Positions 16,311 through 42,858 of a DNA stretch of 64,000 bases are shown one piece after another. The stretch spans positions 50,406,001 to 50,470,000 of the forward strand of contig OX597814.1 of NCBI GenBank assembly GCA_951406725.2, read 5' to 3'. This DNA is from Octopus vulgaris. Its lineage: Eukaryota. Numbering within the stretch: the first letter of the stretch is position 1; each line of letters begins with the position of its first letter. Both the position numbers and the translations under genes were made by a program. The notes below the pieces were generated by a model that was not told the DNA's origin, searched no databases, and worked only from the letters and a program-made list of their open reading frames with translations.

Positions 16311-16424
16311 TTATTATAATAATTATTATTATTATTATTGTTATTATTATTTAGCATTATCATTATTGAGTGAGAGAGCAGTGCATGCCATCAAAATAAC
16401 ACTGGGATGAAATATACGAAGGTA

Positions 16425-16746
16425 GGTCTTGACAGATACGTTTATATCGTTTGGGACAGTCATATCAATGAGGAGGCATGTTCTTTGTCTGAAGTCTTTC
16501 AATATGATGTCTGGCCTATTCGCGTCTATCTTTCTGTCAGTTTGAATGGTGAAGTTCCAGAGGAGTGAGAGGTGGTCATTTCAAGCACTGGAGGTGGTTT
16601 GTGTTCCCACCAGTTTTTTTCATGGGGCAAATTCAGGTTTTTGCAAATTACCCAGTGAATATATTGTGCAGCTCTATCATACCTGTTGAGATACTCTGTA
16701 GGCGCTAGAAGACTGCACTTGGAGACAACATGATCAATGGTTTCAT
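16425..16746 (-). mobile_element. Second R4/Dong fragment, same family as 20035-21989
   Basis: NETIDHVVSKCSLLAPTEYLNRYDRAAQYIHWVICK; closely similar to 21250-21570. Confidence 0.9.
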
Positions 16747-16748
16747 TA

Positions 16749-17206: not shown

Positions 17207-17410
17207 AAGGGGGAGATGGCAGAATGGTTAGCACGCTGAACAGTAAGCTTAGTGGTTTACTAGTTGTCCGTAGTTACGTTCTGAGTTCAAATTCCGCCGC
17301 AGTCGACTTTGCTTTTCATCCTATCAGGGTCGATAAAATAAGCGCCAGTTAAACACTGGGGTCGATGTAATCGGCTCACCCTCCTCCAAAATGTTAATCC
17401 TTGTGCCTAC
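17207..17410 (+). mobile_element. SINE family A
   Basis: Head, B-box and body motifs. Confidence 0.85.
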
Positions 17411-19538: not shown

Positions 19539-19590
<52 letters not shown>

Positions 19591-19595
<5 letters not shown>

Positions 19596-19772
19596 GAGAT
19601 GAGGAATTATGTACATTATTTACATCATTTACATTTGACGGATATTTGTCATCTTGTTTGTTGTTAACACAACGTTTCGGTTGATATACCACACAGCCTT
19701 CATCAGGTGTCTTGGGGAAATTCCAAACCTGGTTTCTCATTACTAAGGTATTTTTCGAGGTTATTATTATTA

Positions 19773-19838
<66 letters not shown>

Positions 19839-19903
19839 TCACTGCTTGGAATCGAACTCGGAATCTTGGGGTTAGTAGCCCGCGTTCTTAATCACTACGC
19901 CAT
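19591..19903 (-). mobile_element. tRNA-head + (AAT)n + HHR element (inverted left arm)
   Basis: Minus strand: ATGGCGTAGTGATTAAG..GAGTTCGATTCC..GTGACC, then (AAT)n, HHR and tail, ending at (TA)n. Confidence 0.85.
19666..19711 (-). ncRNA. Minimal type I HHR
   Basis: GACAC-CTGATGA-AGGCTG...CAACC-GAAAC-GTT-GTGTT. Confidence 0.8.
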
Positions 19904-20034
19904 TTGAGTTCGATTCCAAGCAGTGACCTGAATAATAATAATAATAATAATAATAAGATCATGGAGATCCACACTAACTAATAATAATAATAATAATAAG
20001 ATCATGGAGAACCACACTAATAATAATAATAATA

Positions 20035-21989
20035 AGATCATGGAGAACCACACTAACTCTGAACAGTGACAATGAATCCCTAAATGCTGGTGATGTAAAA
20101 ATTTCGTGTGGCATTTTCCAGGGTGACTCACTGTCACCACTCCTCTTTTGTTTATCCTTAATACCTCTCTCAAAGCTGCTCAATGACGCGCAGTACGGGT
20201 ATAAAATGTTTGATAAAAATATAAATCATCTCAGTTACATGGATGATTTAAAGCTTTATGCAAAAAATGACCAACAACTCAAGGGCTTACTAGCGATAGT
20301 CAAACAATTCAGTGACGACGTCAGAATGCAATTCGGCCTCGATAAATGTGCAAAGGCTACCTTTATCAAAGGAAAAATGACAGAAACATCTAACGTTAAC
20401 CTTGACCAGCAGAATGTCACAAAAGAACTAGACCCAGCGGAGAGCTACAAGTACCTAGGGGTAATTGAAGGGAACGGAATAAGGCATTCAGAGATGAAGG
20501 AAAGGATCAGGAGAGAATGCTATCGAAGAGTGAGAGCAATACTCAAGACAGAGCTGAATGCAAGAAACAGGATCGAAGCGATCAATGCATTAGCCATACC
20601 AGTCGTGACTTACAGTTTCAATATTGTTAACTGGTCAATTACTGAAATATGTCAGCTCGACAGAAAAATAAGGAAACTGTTGACAATGCATAGAATGCAC
20701 CACCCTAAGGCAGATACAGAACGACTCTATCTGCCAAGAAAAGAGGGAGGCCGTGGTCTTTTACAACTGGCAATAACAATGAAGATCGCTACAATTGGCC
20801 TAGACACCTACCTGAAAAACTCTGAGGACTGGATGTTAAAACTTGTCTCAAAACATGAAAACAAAAAAGCATCATACTCAGTCACAAAACAGGCAAAGGA
20901 ATATCTAAGTGAATTCCGAATACAACCAATTTCGGAATTAGAGATAGACATACAAGAAACAAGCACAGAAAAAGCTAGGCGCATGAAAACCCGTGCCAAA
21001 ACTGCGGCCTTAGATATTCTGAATAATAAATGACAAGAAAAACCTCTCTATGGCAAATGCCCAAAGAGAGCGAATAATGCAGATATCGACAAAGCCCTGA
21101 CCCATCAATGGCTAATGGCCTCTGGCTTAAAATCTGAAACAGAAGGGTTTATCATAGCAGCTCAAGATCAATGCCTACCAACAAGAAACTACCAGGCCAA
21201 CATATTAAAGAACGGCAGTAGCCCAACATGTCGTGTATGCCGACAACAAAATGAAACCATTGACCATGTTGTCTCCAAATGCAGTCTTCTAGCGCCTACA
21301 GAGTACCTCAGTAGGCATGATAGAGCTGCACAATATATTGACTGGGTAATTTGCAAAACCCTGGATTTGCCCCATGAAAAAAACTGGTGGGAACACAATC
21401 CACCTCCTGTGCTTGAAAATGACCACATCTCACTCCTCTGGAACTTCACCATTCAAACTGACAGGAAGATAGTTGCAAATAAGCCAGACATTATATTGAA
21501 AGACTTCAGACAAAGAACATGCCTCCTCATTGATATGACTGTCCCAATCGATATAAACGTATCTGTCAAGACCTACCAAAAACTGAGCAAATATAAAGAT
21601 CTTGAAATAGAAATCAGCAAAATGTGGAAGCTGAAGACTAAAACAATACCTGTTGTCATAGGTGCCCTGGGAATGATAGCGAAAGGGACTGATTGCTACC
21701 TAACTCAGATACCAGGAAACCCCAAAATGGCAGAAATTCAAAAGATAGTGCTCATGGGAACTGCTCATATCCTACGCAAAATACTCTCTATGTAATCCCA
21801 AAGTTTAAAACAAACTTTTTTTTATTTTTTATTTTTTTATTTTTTATTTTTATGTATTAGACATTCACTAGTACAACACCAACAAAAAAAAAAAAACCCC
21901 AAATATATGGCACAGAACTTCCAACCTGTTGTCTCTTGAGGTCTCTGGGTGAGACTTGGACAGACATAAAGCAAAAGTCAAACATAGAA
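20035..21989 (+). mobile_element. R4/Dong-type non-LTR retrotransposon, 5'-truncated, well preserved, inserted in (TAA)n
   Basis: Single frame 20035-21795 with one TGA at 21031: GIFQGDSLSP, YMDDLK, YKYLG, GGRGL, CRVC..H..C, RHD, KPDI..D..K..KY. Has a 3' UTR and a (TAA)n tail. Confidence 0.92.
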
Positions 21990-22070
21990 TAATAATAATA
22001 ATAATAATAACAACAACAACAACATCGAAAAATGTCTTAGGAATGAGAACCCAGGTTCGATTTCCCTAAC

Positions 22071-22114
22071 ACACCTGATGAAGGCTGGAGGGTATATCAG
22101 CCGAAACGTTGTGT
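22071..22114 (+). ncRNA. Minimal type I HHR
   Basis: ACAC-CTGATGA-A-GGCTG...CAGCC-GAAAC-GTT-GTGT; palindromic AACGTT stem III. Confidence 0.85.
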
Positions 22115-23625
22115 TAACAACAAAACAAATATCAGTCAAATGTAAATAATGTAAATAATGAATATAAACATAAAATACTAAACCTTATCCACCACGTCAA
22201 TAATACTATTTAGAATTTAGTTGCCAAAATAAACAAATGAACGTGTAATCTGATACCTCTAAACATGCCAAGATAACATGTCTACATTTTCAAATATTCG
22301 TTTGAATAAATTAATACTGCTTCTCGCGAATGTAAAAGTATTTGCATTTTCTTAAAATTGAGTATTCACCAATTATCTGAATCTTCAATTGAGCATTATT
22401 CATTATAATACATAGCTACTGGCTATACGAATACCCTTCTTCCTTATTAAATATTTAGACAAAAATTAACATTAACATTTAACAAATTATGTATAAGTAA
22501 AACAACAGAATATGTTAATTAATTACTCCAAAATTAAGTACCCACCAAACTCGAGCCAAATCGATTGTTAATGTTGCCTCTTGTCGAAATATTTGGATCA
22601 ATACATGGTACAAGATCAAGATAAGTAAACAAAATGTGAACTGCCTATGCCTTGACTTTGTACACAAGACAGAATCCAGAATATACAATATTTACAGCGA
22701 TGCTTTATCTGGGTTTGTGCATACATAATGAGCACTGTTGTATTTAGCTTTCTTACTTGAGCCATATCAAAGTCTATTAACATTATACCACATATATGCG
22801 GTCACATATTCTAGAGCAAATGTCGTATAGGCAGTTTTAAGATACTCTAAAGCAATATTTCAAGAGTAGCCACATACAATAAGCAACCATATTAGCTAAG
22901 TACTTGGTATTGAATATTAAAATTAAATTAGCTGCCATAAATTTTCCTTTGAGACGAGATTAAAAACCGAGAAAATATTTTTAAACAGTAATAATTAATT
23001 GACATTTTATTTCATTACAAAAGCTGAAGGTTTAGAGGTTAAGTTTGTCATTAAAAATTTGTAAAATGCTTCTTTGTGACTGTTTTAAACATATATTCCC
23101 TGGTCATTTTAAGGTTATAAGGTCACCATTTGTTTGAGCAGAATGATATCAGAAGCTATTTAGTTCTTTTCTTTTATTCCTTTTTGTTTTTAAAATAAAA
23201 TGACCTTTCGATTTCAAAATGTAAAATAGCAGTTGAGAGCGAAGGCTTTGTGAAAAACAGCATCAGCTTGAACAAGCAGAATAAAGTTAAGACTAACAGC
23301 TCACGCTATTGATCAGTCTCAATAACATAATTCAATTATTAAACTATAAGCTGACAAATTGAATTGCCTGTCAAATTAATTAGTAAATGATTACTATAAA
23401 TCACAAGTAGGTTGGTAATCTGGAAAGGATGCTAAAATTAGCAACTCAAGAATTCTTAAAGAAAGAGAATTAAATATAAGATAGAATATTTCTGTTGCTT
23501 GATCATTTAGCAAAATTCGCAAACGTCGCGGTCATTTTGTATAGAGAGTGACTCATATAGCCTAACGGGAAGTAACGTCCGTTTTAAATTGTTGTACTAT
23601 ATCGCGCTTAGAAAAAAACAGAAAG

Positions 23626-24300
23626 AGGCGAGCTAGTAGAATCGCTAGAACGTCGGGCGAAGTACCTTACGCTAATTGTTCTAGTTCTTTACGTTCTTAG
23701 TTCAAATCCCGCCGAGATCAACTTACCTTTCATTCTTCCGGAGACAAGCATTGGGTCAACAGTATCGACTTCCTCTCTCCTCCAAATTGCCTAAATTAGA
23801 AACTGTTATTAGGAAGTAAGAAACATTTTGTTGTTCCTCATAATCAAAAGCATTGTAATAACCATCCAATTGCAGAGAAATCCACTTGCTTGCAAGCATT
23901 TATTTCACCGGAAACCTAGTCCATATGCTATAGTATAACCTGGAGGCGGTGTAAAGTCAGTGTAGTATTTTAATTATTACATAGTTGTGAAATACTAGTA
24001 CTGACTAAATGCAACATTCAGCTGAAGGAATGAAACTATTTCGACAATGTAAAATTTTGCCATTTTACTGTCCTAGTTTTCCAAGAGTAACGTGTTTTAT
24101 TATAGGCACAAGGCGGCGAGCTGGCAGAGTCCTTAGCGCTTCGGGCGAAATGCTAAGCGGCATTTCTTCCGCGATCTCAGCTGTGCCTCTTCACCCTTTC
24201 AGAGTCAATAAAATAAAGTACCAGTCAAGTACTAGGATTGATATAATCGACTTGCCTCCTCCCCTCGAAAGTGCTGGTTTCTGACAAAATTAGAAAAGAT
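23626..24300 (+). mobile_element. Two SINE family A copies (23626-23800 and 24111-24300)
   Basis: GGCGAGCT(A/G)G head and body motifs. Confidence 0.8.
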
Positions 24301-39448: not shown

Positions 39449-41034
39449 GTGAGTTTTCTTCGGAATCGGAACTGTTCTCCCAAGTGTTTAGATTCGGTTG
39501 GATTTATGAAATCTGTTCGTTTGTTTGTTTATGACTTTGGTTTAATGTACAGAAAAACCATCTGAGACCCTAAAAACCGGTATATATGCTGGAGAGATAA
39601 AAAGCAAAAGAATTATATGTGCGAGTATACACGCACACTCCACAAACCTATACGATAGGCAAAACGAAATATTATTTAATTTATGCATTTACTTGCTGTC
39701 AATCAGACTTCTTTCTTATACAGATTTAGCTGATTTTTTCCTTGTACTTAGCGTGTATGTGCGCGCGCGCGACCGTGTGTGTATGTCATGTCCCCAGTGA
39801 AATTTGAACTGATGCAAGTATTTTACTGTATTTCTCTTTAAACTAGAAAATACGTTGCCATTTTTTTTTCGATGTTAGTTTTTACAAACTTTTCATCATT
39901 TTTATCAAATTTTGAAGAAGTGAAGAAAACTTTAATGACAGAAATATTTCAGCGAAAGATAAATTACTTTTCTCTTTAATTTAACAAGCATGAACATTTT
40001 GATAATGTTACTCTTATTTTCATTTAAACACAGGTCAGTCCTACTCTGGCACGTAAGCAGTCAATTGAATGCCTATAGTCAATCTTGAAATCAGTTGCTC
40101 CATATTTGTATTTTATAAGATAGTCTATGTCCATGACCTTTTCCTGGCTCTCCTAGGCATCAATATTTAACATGTACATCTGTAGATTGGTGGCTTCTGC
40201 CAAAATATATACATATAAATACGGCGGTGAAGATAAATCATGTTCGAAGTGATGAGACTGGAGTTGAGACACGGTAAGGATAACCGAAAGATGGATAGGG
40301 CATTTATTTCCGAGTGAGGAAGATATGTAACTTGTTAGCTCAGAAAAGTAGAGGCCTTCATAGTAAGAATAGAAAGCAGTGAAGTAATAGATATTTCGTG
40401 CAGCCTGCTGGTAATTTAATGCATTGAATAGTCATCTTTGGATCAGTCTATGTTGTTATTGCAATGGTTAGCAGTTTTAGTAACTTCGACGCTTTTAGTA
40501 AGATGTTATTCACAGTTGAAGCGGGTAAGGTACAAGAAGGTTTACTTGATATGTGTGATGAGTGAGATTTTGTGCTGTTAAAAGACACAAGGCTATCATA
40601 TTCCCATTGAATGATTTTTCAAACTCTTTGTTGCTGTAGGTAAAGGAAGAATGGCGTGAGACACACAAGTTCAGTGTGAATACTGTCTGGGCGCAGAGGG
40701 TAAACGATTAAATAATACATCATCTGTATGACAGTGTTAGTTGCCAGAAGTGCAGGTAACTTTATGTTTAATGTGCAGAAGGAAATGTACGAGAAACATT
40801 GCTGAACCACGAGGTACATCATACGCCAAGTTAATTGAATGTCAGTGGTGATGAGCACGTCGGTACACACTGCAATGGTACGGTCTGACAGAAGAGCTTC
40901 AGTGCCTAGTTCAGGACCATGTTGCGCAATTTTTTATTGTATGTTGCTTCTTTTCAGTTGTCTGGCTTCTTATGTTTATGCGTCCAGTGACGTACGAAAA
41001 GTCTCATATTTAAACTGCAACAATCGAGTCCTTT

Positions 41035-41834
41035 ACAGTTCTATATTTAAGAGATGAGCAATTATGTACATTATTTACATTATTTACATTCGACGGATAA
41101 TTGTCCTCATCTTGTTTGTTGTTAACACAACGTTGAAAGGCCTCTCCGAAAAGATACAAAAGATATGCGGCCCATATGACATCATGACAGTATTCAAGAA
41201 TAATACAACACTTTACAAATATCTTCTTCGAGTAAAACCACCAATAGAAGAGAATATGACCAAAGATTGCGTGTACTCCATCCCATGCAGCTGTGGTAGG
41301 TTATACAAAGGCGAAACATGCCACCCACTCAAAATAAGGGTAAACGAACAATGCAAAGCGAGGAGATATTGATAAACCGGGTATAGCTGATCATGTATGT
41401 AAAAATGGAGACCACCTCCCCCTGAGGAATGAAGTTAAAATAATAGACAGAGAACAACACTGGAAAATACGAAAACTAAAAGAAGCAGTACATATGCTAG
41501 GACACAACAACCTTCTAAGCAGACCGAGTGCAGATATGAGCAGCATATGGGAACCGGTGTTAAGGAAGGATAGGAGATTATTAGATTTATAAGCCTTACA
41601 ATTCACACCATAATTGCCCATGGGCATATGGTGTAGTGGTTAAGAGCGCGGGCTACTAACCCCAAGATTCCGAGTGCGATTCCAAGCAGTGACCTGAACA
41701 ATAGTAAGAACAACAACAACAATAACATCGAAAAATACCTTAGGAATGAGAACCCAGGTTCGAAATTTCCCCAAGACACCTGAAGGCTGGAGGGTTAACA
41801 ACAAACAAGATGAGGACAAATATTTATGTAAATA
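41035..41834 (+). mobile_element. 5'-truncated Penelope/Poseidon-type PLE: inverted tail, GIY-YIG ORF, tRNA-like module, deleted HHR
   Basis: CVYSIPCSCGRLYKGET...IADH...VKIIDREQHWKIRKLKEA, stop at 41590-41592; TSD AATCGAGTCCTTT at 41022 and 41835. Confidence 0.9.
41622..41695 (+). promoter_or_regulatory. tRNA-derived sequence (Pol III A/B boxes), not a functional tRNA
   Basis: A box TGGTGTAGTGG, loop GGG-CTACTAA-CCC, B box GAGT(G/T)CGATTC; acceptor and T stems are mismatched. Confidence 0.8.
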
Positions 41835-42858
41835 AATCGAGTCCTTTGGTATAGATTAGTATAGTATAAATTTGTATAGTATAGTACAATTTGTAGTAAA
41901 CTTGTATTTAGCTATGTTATCAAAATCAAAGCTTTCTTTTGTTGCTATAATGTTAGCTAATTGATGTTATATACAGTTTATAGAGTCTGATTTTTAGTAG
42001 TGGGATGGAGATAGTGTTTCGAGGCGTTCAAATACAATGGTGATACAATTTGGAAGAAATAACTCCACCTGACAGTTCAATTATTGTTGTGGTGTCTGTG
42101 TGTGCCGGAAGTTTAAATGTATTACATGACATTGATCACAGAATGAGAATAACCACAGAGAGGTGTATTTTCCGAGTTGTAAGCTCATCATGGTCGAAAC
42201 AAGCAGTCATGCCAGATAATGCATCTATAAGAATTAATGTTTTGCATAACTTATTGCAGCAGTCATTCTTTATTCAATAGAACCAAACTAGTTGAATAAA
42301 AGTGTTTTGTGTTTGTAAGAACAAATGCATTTATACTGTTGTATTTCTTATTTCTAACCATATTTCACCTCATCTGACATTGAAAGCAGAAGTTATAAAA
42401 ACTCAAAAATAAAAACTTAAGAATGCCACCCACACTATATTTTTATGTATTTATCACTTTATACCGATGTCATCATTCACACAGATGCAATAAACCTCAG
42501 AAAATTTGATTTCCTTGTGGGTTCTCGTAGTTTTAGTCATTCCATTTAAATAAATCTCGATTGCAAGCTGGAACCATTCCATCTAGATTACAACATCTAT
42601 TGCTTTGAATGACACGATTTTCCTCTTCCTCTCTTCGATGAATGATACGTTGGGTTACGGCAATCAGTTCTGTTGATCCATTTATATTAAAGGGGTTCCC
42701 ATTGTCTCCATAATTTCTATAGAAATCAGTGAACTGTACTCTTTTACCGCCCTAGATTAGTGTTTAAATATATGTGTGTATGTATAAGCGTGCGTGTGTG
42801 TGTATACGTATGTATGTATATGTGTGTGTTTATATGTAAGTGTGTGTGCGTGTTTGCT

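Follow-up and report, generated by a model that had tools for sequence, protein, structure and literature searches.

A tRNA-like head on the terminal repeat of a coding Penelope-type element in Octopus vulgaris

A 64,000-nucleotide stretch of the Octopus vulgaris genome (GenBank assembly GCA_951406725.2, contig OX597814.1, forward-strand positions 50,406,001 to 50,470,000; hereafter, the window, with positions counted from its first letter) contains two short repeat copies joined head to head, each with a tRNA-like portion followed by a hammerhead ribozyme motif. Such a pair raises the question of whether it represents a tRNA-derived short interspersed element (SINE) that is mobilized by a Penelope-like element (PLE) rather than by a long interspersed element (LINE), as the original prediction held, or a piece of the PLE itself. 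Judging from the sequences of its genomic relatives, the head-to-head unit is the pseudo-long terminal repeat (pLTR) of an abundant coding element of the Penelope/Poseidon type. The feature is real but was partly misdescribed: it is a variant Penelope element and not a new class of SINEs. With confidence that goes no further than even, we read the short arms as by-products of the coding RNA, for which the likely start site is the tRNA-like head and the likely polymerase is RNA polymerase III (Pol III).

The window pair and its coding parent

The two arms, one on the minus strand (19903 to 19591) and one on the plus strand (19906 to 22160), have the same order of parts: a tRNA-like head comes first, followed by an (AAT)n spacer, sequence containing a minimal hammerhead, and an AT-rich terminus that extends farther in the minus arm; 51 nt of the two arms are mutually complementary at 100%. 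The minus arm begins 1 base ahead of the A box, at the equivalent of tRNA position 7, and the plus arm begins at 19906, immediately before the B box. Both starts were correctly predicted, although the plus arm proved not to be continuous, as a LINE occupies positions 19957 to 21987. In the long (tailed) minus arm, the head spans positions 19835 to 19903 (A box, 19902 to 19892, with one change, at G19; B box, 19857 to 19849), as delineated from the sequence and from alignment to genomic tRNAs, and is followed by the (AAT)n spacer (19761 to 19834), an ORF start that includes a minimal type I hammerhead (19666 to 19711), and the tail. As had been noted, this arm abuts a TA-rich repeat, the (AT)25 microsatellite at 19542 to 19591; about 12 nt of the end of the family tail is missing here. 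The short (tail-less) plus arm comprises a 5' piece (19906 to 19956) with the B-box half of the head and (AAT)n and a 3' piece (21988 to 22160) with (AAT)n, an ATG at 22043, and a hammerhead at 22070 to 22115.

The hammerhead cores that had been claimed for both arms are indeed found, at 19706 (minus) and 22075 (plus). Each has an extra base after A9, a G10.1-C11.1 pair, the palindromic AACGUU, and the GUU triplet, with predicted cuts after 19671 and 22110, respectively; stem II of the minus-arm copy is broken at one pair. These features, including the palindromic positions 15.2 to 16.2, agree with the minimal PLE hammerhead (PMC4209133; here and below, cited sources stand for those parts of their text that were available). 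ARAGORN called no tRNA at the heads of the pair, Rfam (in gathering and E-value modes) called neither a tRNA nor a hammerhead, and neither the hammerheads nor the head scored as significantly structured when folded as single strands (z-scores of -0.35, -0.65, and +1.33); both assignments are based on motifs and that of the head also on its alignment to genomic tRNAs.

The pair had been described as devoid of open reading frames (ORFs) and of PLE coding sequence, which turned out to be incorrect. The ATG at 19740 opens 49 codons (19594 to 19740, minus strand; the frame is open in this copy) that match the N terminus of a Penelope ORF, and in near-full copies elsewhere in the genome, the ORF likewise begins at an ATG within the terminal repeat, before the hammerhead is reached. 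When the majority letter is taken at each column of 26 copy pieces, a single open frame of 835 codons reads from the pLTR ATG. This ORF matches the reverse transcriptase (RT) domain RVT_1; the GIY-YIG motifs in its coding end were identified by eye, and Pfam returned no GIY-YIG match on the endonuclease fragments. Its best named relative is an Anolis protein of 836 amino acids (40% identity), and an 847-amino-acid homolog from another source retains the N-terminal stretch. There are 139 homologs of at least 813 amino acids, and one domain set is common to nearly all of the 120 listed.

A second insertion of the family in the window (41035 to 41834, plus strand), flanked by a 13-nt target-site duplication (41022 to 41034 and 41835 to 41847), consists of an inverted tail piece (41035 to 41134), a GIY-YIG coding end (41135 to 41592), a hairpin (41605 to 41632), and, from 41622, a tRNA-like head followed by a degenerate pLTR. 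Here, the GIY-YIG coding sequence passes directly into the head. The same succession is seen in 29 of the first 30 endonuclease ends in the genome, taken without selection, and among 30 loci picked for their ORF start, 7 have the head immediately 5' of the ORF. Because the head follows the endonuclease end with such regularity and the ORF starts within the repeat, the window unit is assigned to the pLTR of the coding element. The full unit reads head, (AAT)n, ATG, hammerhead, tail, RT, GIY-YIG endonuclease, stop codon, hairpin, and head again. Contigs from four other organisms cover the endonuclease end, the head, and the hammerhead, and in some of them the junction is bridged. The family, placed by similarity, shows the hallmarks of endonuclease-containing (EN+) Penelope/Poseidon elements: a single ORF with RT plus, at the C terminus, a GIY-YIG domain, pLTRs in partial tandem or inverted arrangement that contain the ORF start and a minimal type I hammerhead, and a one-sided tail of 30 to 40 nt.

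Many ORF-start copies (loci L365 to L394) keep just the first 100 to 400 nt and then return to the pLTR or end; six of them end at +105 to +119. This pattern suggests that templates were short or that jumps took place soon after the tail.

Where copies begin and what the short arms are

The original prediction named an extremely 5'-truncated PLE as its alternative. A reading in which an ordinary Penelope lost most of its 5' portion at random, the head playing no special part, we regard as extremely unlikely. Coding-linked copies are indeed variably truncated across more than 1 kb, and opposed minimal hammerheads 100 to 700 bp apart have already been attributed to truncated PLEs (PMC4209133). 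This explanation is contradicted by the distribution of 5' ends on the consensus, which was examined in the first 90 of 100 listed B-box matches, excluding the two in the window; removal of 4 duplicates left 86 arms. Twenty-two of these end within the head, 58 end at -20 to +7 of tRNA position 1, and 6 (one of them classed by eye) run into the ORF. Thus, 58 of the 64 arms at risk (91%) end within a 27-nt window at the head start, compared to 19% expected from the background loss of 0.8% per nt in the head (P of about 1e-35). Upstream of the head, arms are lost at 0.2% per nt, as measured on 29 of 30 arms after a duplicate was set aside. The 5' ends at -20 to -9 mostly reflect alignment run-on via fold-backs, and many head-to-head junctions are perfect fold-backs.

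A sharp peak at the tRNA head had been expected to support an independent SINE, and the peak is there. However, RNA that starts at the head of the coding element would produce the same peak, so that the 5'-end test cannot separate a SINE from a by-product. In the independent-SINE explanation, each short copy would rely on its own head for Pol III transcription and on the Penelope protein for mobilization in trans. Besides the sharp peak, it can draw on the number of exact matches to 23- to 25-mers in the 2.8-Gb genome, which climbs from 35 for the ORF start through 830 for the endonuclease end and 2965 for the B box to 8081 for the hammerhead-tail stretch (control k-mers gave 0), on a few non-fold-back short copies (L108, L126, and L149) that carry the inverted loop of fold-back arms, and on the precedent of nonautonomous Penelope derivatives, such as MRC1 (PMC8557442) and retrozymes (bioRxiv 10.64898/2026.07.22.740005).

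Against a SINE separate from its PLE partner, the head belongs to the coding element, and loci L333 and L389 begin at -2 or -4 of the head and continue into the ORF. At a frequency of at least 12%, no variant is private to the short arms (62 of these versus 48 coding-linked arms, a small sample), and the two classes have diverged equally (5.5% for short and 5.4% for coding-linked arms), which leaves no sign of an age difference. Shared variants respect the reading frame: the non-CpG substitutions found in both classes are third-position changes of similar frequency, with one at the free hammerhead position N7, and the commonest indels present in both classes include ones of 3, 9, and 18 nt, along with several out-of-frame ones in 3 to 6 arms. 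The inverted loop is also present in the coding-linked copies L046 and L146. A candidate for an internally deleted master family of the short copies was rejected, as it has only 2 copies. Finally, the template of the Anolis PAc element requires ORF sequence past its priming sites (PMC11167929), which solo arms lack; having no ORF sequence past the tail, they would mostly be dead ends. Since short and coding-linked arms show no separate lineage, a SINE independent of its Penelope partner is not supported, and we consider it quite improbable; RNA of the coding element likely gives rise to the short arms as by-products.

tRNA-derived SINEs (SINE2) have an A/B-box tRNA-like head, 5' ends at the head start, and tens of thousands of copies. 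The octopus unit shares all three features, its copy number being an estimate. It differs in that it ends on the 3' side at a putative priming site internal to the PLE and not in a LINE tail, and its body is the coding 5' end of its partner: instead of a distinct noncoding unit with its own lineage and diagnostic variants, we see the partner's own pLTR, including the first codons.

The structure of the inverted pairs bears on how they arise. A long arm is combined with a short one in 71 of 78 classifiable pairs (82 in total) and in 55 of 61 pairs from unselected samples, the latter count leaving out 17 score-selected loci and the two in the window. Target-site duplications of at least 10 nt flank 45 of 78 pairs, compared to 5.5% of shuffled pairs, and minor alleles common to both arms of one insertion occur at 4 times the rate in random pairs (53 in 8854 sites, 81 pairs). 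The 3' ends of copies are bimodal, with the two groups about 35 nt apart, and do not coincide with the predicted hammerhead cut. The sampled copies are solo or head to head, with isolated short tandems only and none of the head-to-tail arrays of retrozymes.

The tRNA-like head and the choice of polymerase

Among 30 genomic tRNA genes, which cover six amino acids, the head aligns best to tRNA-Arg (z-scores of 7 to 9); together with its A- and B-box motifs, this bears out its description as tRNA-like. Since the gene set is confined to six amino acids, tRNA-Arg is a candidate donor only. A Pol III start would be expected about 10 to 14 nt ahead of the A box. Junctions left by template jumps open into the head at -6/-7 (L325/L331, L328, and L383) or at -2 (L327), and from entries at -7 to -2 we infer that the template's 5' end lies 10 to 14 nt ahead of the A box, with the A and B boxes following at tRNA spacing.

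The absence of TTTT from a Pol III template was predicted ahead of counting. The majority sense strand contains 0 TTTT in 2590 nt, whereas a base shuffle expects 4.6 (P = 0.004) and codon-aware nulls expect 3.2 to 3.5 (3.2 with synonymous permutation; P = 0.02). In contrast, 6 TTTT occur in the 820 codons of a control Penelope family that lacks a tRNA head (6.3 expected), and its untranslated and 3' regions contain many T5 to T8 runs. A run of four or more T residues is found no farther than 40 nt downstream in 23 of the 30 genomic tRNA genes. The TTTT-free majority strand is thus a hint at Pol III. Codon use accounts for the absence of GGGG (P = 0.28). The control family (L294, 746 to 3205 as oriented; L273 to L297) is very young, with 98 to 100% identity and an open frame of 820 codons, and its T-rich 3' region ends beside (AT)n.

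Under the proposed mechanism, RNA would start about 2 to 7 nt before tRNA position 1, and Pol III would transcribe the entire 2.6-kb coding unit from the tRNA-like head. The Penelope protein would then prime reverse transcription internally, at two sites just beyond the hammerhead, as in Anolis PAc, where two such internal sites define the tail (PMC11167929). Priming in the 5' pLTR would extend only some 250 to 300 nt to the RNA 5' end, much like strong-stop cDNA, and would yield the SINE-like arms, and a pair of cDNAs, one primed from each cut strand, could join head to head via short homologies or hairpin fold-back. That Penelope machinery made the insertion, as had been predicted, is supported. 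We explain the window pair as a single Penelope-type insertion of two head-to-head pLTR copies, the plus arm of which was later split by a Dong-like LINE; taken jointly with the by-product and Pol III readings, this account is about as probable as its negation. The weakest part is the transcription of the whole coding unit by Pol III, which we consider possible but short of probable.

A rather unlikely competing explanation retains the Penelope origin and dispenses with Pol III: the 5' end would come from a Pol II start, from RT stalling or folding back at the hairpin, or from RNase P-like cutting, and the head would be what is left of a captured SINE and would not act as a promoter. Perfect fold-backs at many junctions fit this explanation, as do the Pol II-type promoters known in other Penelope elements (PMC3846280, PMC8557442). 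It does not readily accommodate the tRNA spacing of the boxes relative to the putative start, the lack of TTTT in the majority unit, or the 5' ends themselves, many of which fall in or past the hairpin loop and not at the stem base, with jumps entering at purines -6 and -2.

Several observations weigh against our preferred reading. The hairpin coincides with the head start and with the 5' peak (-14.9 kcal/mol; z-score, -2.0) and could by itself generate the peak in the absence of Pol III; palindromes at the pLTR 5' end, as well as solo pLTRs, are known in Penelope elements that have no tRNA head (PMC3846280); and the 5'-end profile covers the tRNA-headed family, the control family supplying TTTT counts only. 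The head does not now score as a tRNA (ARAGORN and Rfam). The avoidance of TTTT is modest and is gauged against one control family, and real copies hold 26 TTTT runs in 90.7 kb. At one position some 90 nt beyond the tail, TTTT is present in 6 of 31 copies (and in 4 of 35 exact matches), and the sequence of these copies goes on past it. No RNA record containing the element was listed. RNA reads (three runs from one study) cover either strand at levels that track copy number and do not pile up at the start, and 72 to 77% of the element-covering reads pass into unrelated sequence; since they mirror genomic copy number, they are uninformative on the promoter. It is also unexplained how an uncapped RNA made by Pol III would be translated. 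No target-site duplication is recognizable at the window pair (the best candidate, of 8 nt, is at chance level), and its arms have no minor alleles in common. At about 5% divergence, a young short-only sublineage could escape notice among 62 arms.

A second B-box-like stretch directly follows the ATG within the pLTR (22053 to 22062 and, on the minus strand, 19732 to 19723), and copies of another tRNA-type SINE-like repeat, with A-box- and B-box-like stretches and a common tail, lie at about 17215 to 17400, 23619 to 23730, and 24107 to 24216 of the window. At L235 (694 to 740), RNA reads repeatedly skip 45 nt that have GT..AG ends when read antisense to the ORF; either a deletion variant or splicing of an antisense RNA could account for this.

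A later LINE insertion, known systems, and significance

The LINE that splits the plus arm (19957 to 21987, plus strand) is 5' truncated and encodes the C-terminal half of an RT, a CCHC finger, and a PD..D..K endonuclease, in a frame that extends to 21795 with one in-frame stop at 21031, followed by a 3' untranslated region. By sequence similarity, it appears to be Dong/R4-like. It resembles R4/Dong-clade LINEs in combining an RT with a restriction-like endonuclease and in its (TAA)n target, a site preference described for Dong elements (PMC7998251); the clade assignment reflects similarity. Its solved-structure relatives are R2 proteins only, and its endonuclease half matched no solved relative. 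The genome contains 1640 candidates of this LINE family. Copies end in (AAT)n in all 22 displayed loci (of 25 fetched), and the Penelope repeat follows the LINE in none of the 21 other displayed loci, which identifies the insert as a later insertion into the (AAT)n of the arm. At its 5' junction (19957 to 20052), three slipped copies of an 18-nt RT-internal stretch are separated by (TAA)n, which looks like repeated slippage between template and target. Other Dong-like fragments lie within the (AAT)n of the tRNA-headed pLTR family at L013 and L029, so that the spacer is a recurring landing site. Another fragment of this LINE family, 94% identical, is found at 16421 to 16747 of the window (minus strand), beside (ATT)n arrays.

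Most features of the octopus Penelope family have counterparts in known EN+ Penelope/Poseidon elements, such as Anolis PAc (PMC11167929), Adineta Pen2/Pen2a (PMC3846280), and Penelope of Drosophila virilis. These likewise have a single ORF of about 835 amino acids that starts in the pLTR and combines RT with a C-terminal GIY-YIG domain, a minimal pLTR hammerhead, an inverted 5'-truncated pLTR, a one-sided tail of 30 to 40 nt, a target-site duplication, a palindrome at the pLTR 5' end, and partial tandems; inverted and solo pLTRs, tails, and 5' palindromes have all been described before (PMC8557442, PMC3846280). The octopus family is unlike them in that its pLTR opens, where a promoter would be located, with a tRNA-like head that carries A and B boxes, and its coding strand is largely free of TTTT. 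For the others, the available text describes Pol II-type promoters (TATA box and initiator, intron) and does not mention tRNA.

Short hammerhead- or pLTR-bearing units that depend on PLE enzymes are also represented by Chlamydomonas MRC1 (PMC8557442) and by animal non-LTR retrozymes (bioRxiv 10.64898/2026.07.22.740005). Those are families of their own, often in head-to-tail arrays, whereas the octopus copies, with no separate lineage found, are solo or head to head and have a tRNA-like start. The Schistosoma SINE-like repeats Sm-alpha and Sj-alpha (reviewed in PMC6765202) also place a hammerhead after a Pol III-type promoter; however, they are tandem, have a canonical active hammerhead, and, in the available text, have no identified coding parent, whereas the octopus unit serves a coding element as its terminal repeat. 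The available parts of PMC7761336 and PMC13343379 add nothing further on such schistosome repeats, and those of the retrozyme preprint mention neither tRNA nor Pol III. In literature searches, which did not extend to the repeat libraries Repbase and Dfam, neither a pLTR with a tRNA head nor a Penelope transcribed by Pol III came up.

Pol III is not known to make retroposons other than short, noncoding ones. Tentatively, and with less than even confidence, we suggest that an autonomous coding Penelope may have had its promoter replaced by a tRNA-derived Pol III cassette, with terminators purged, and may thereby have produced thousands of strong-stop, SINE-like copies. Should Pol III play no part, what remains is an ordinary Penelope family whose head was captured from a SINE. 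A 5' peak at a tRNA head is, by itself, no proof of a separate SINE. Both the transcription of Penelope elements and the formation of their inverted pairs are still open questions, and this family, which leaves a countable record of the RNA 5' end, makes both testable on a natural fragment of about 300 nt. If the Pol III reading is true, a coding element and its "SINE" would be contained in one transcript, which would provide a direct route to Penelope-dependent SINEs.

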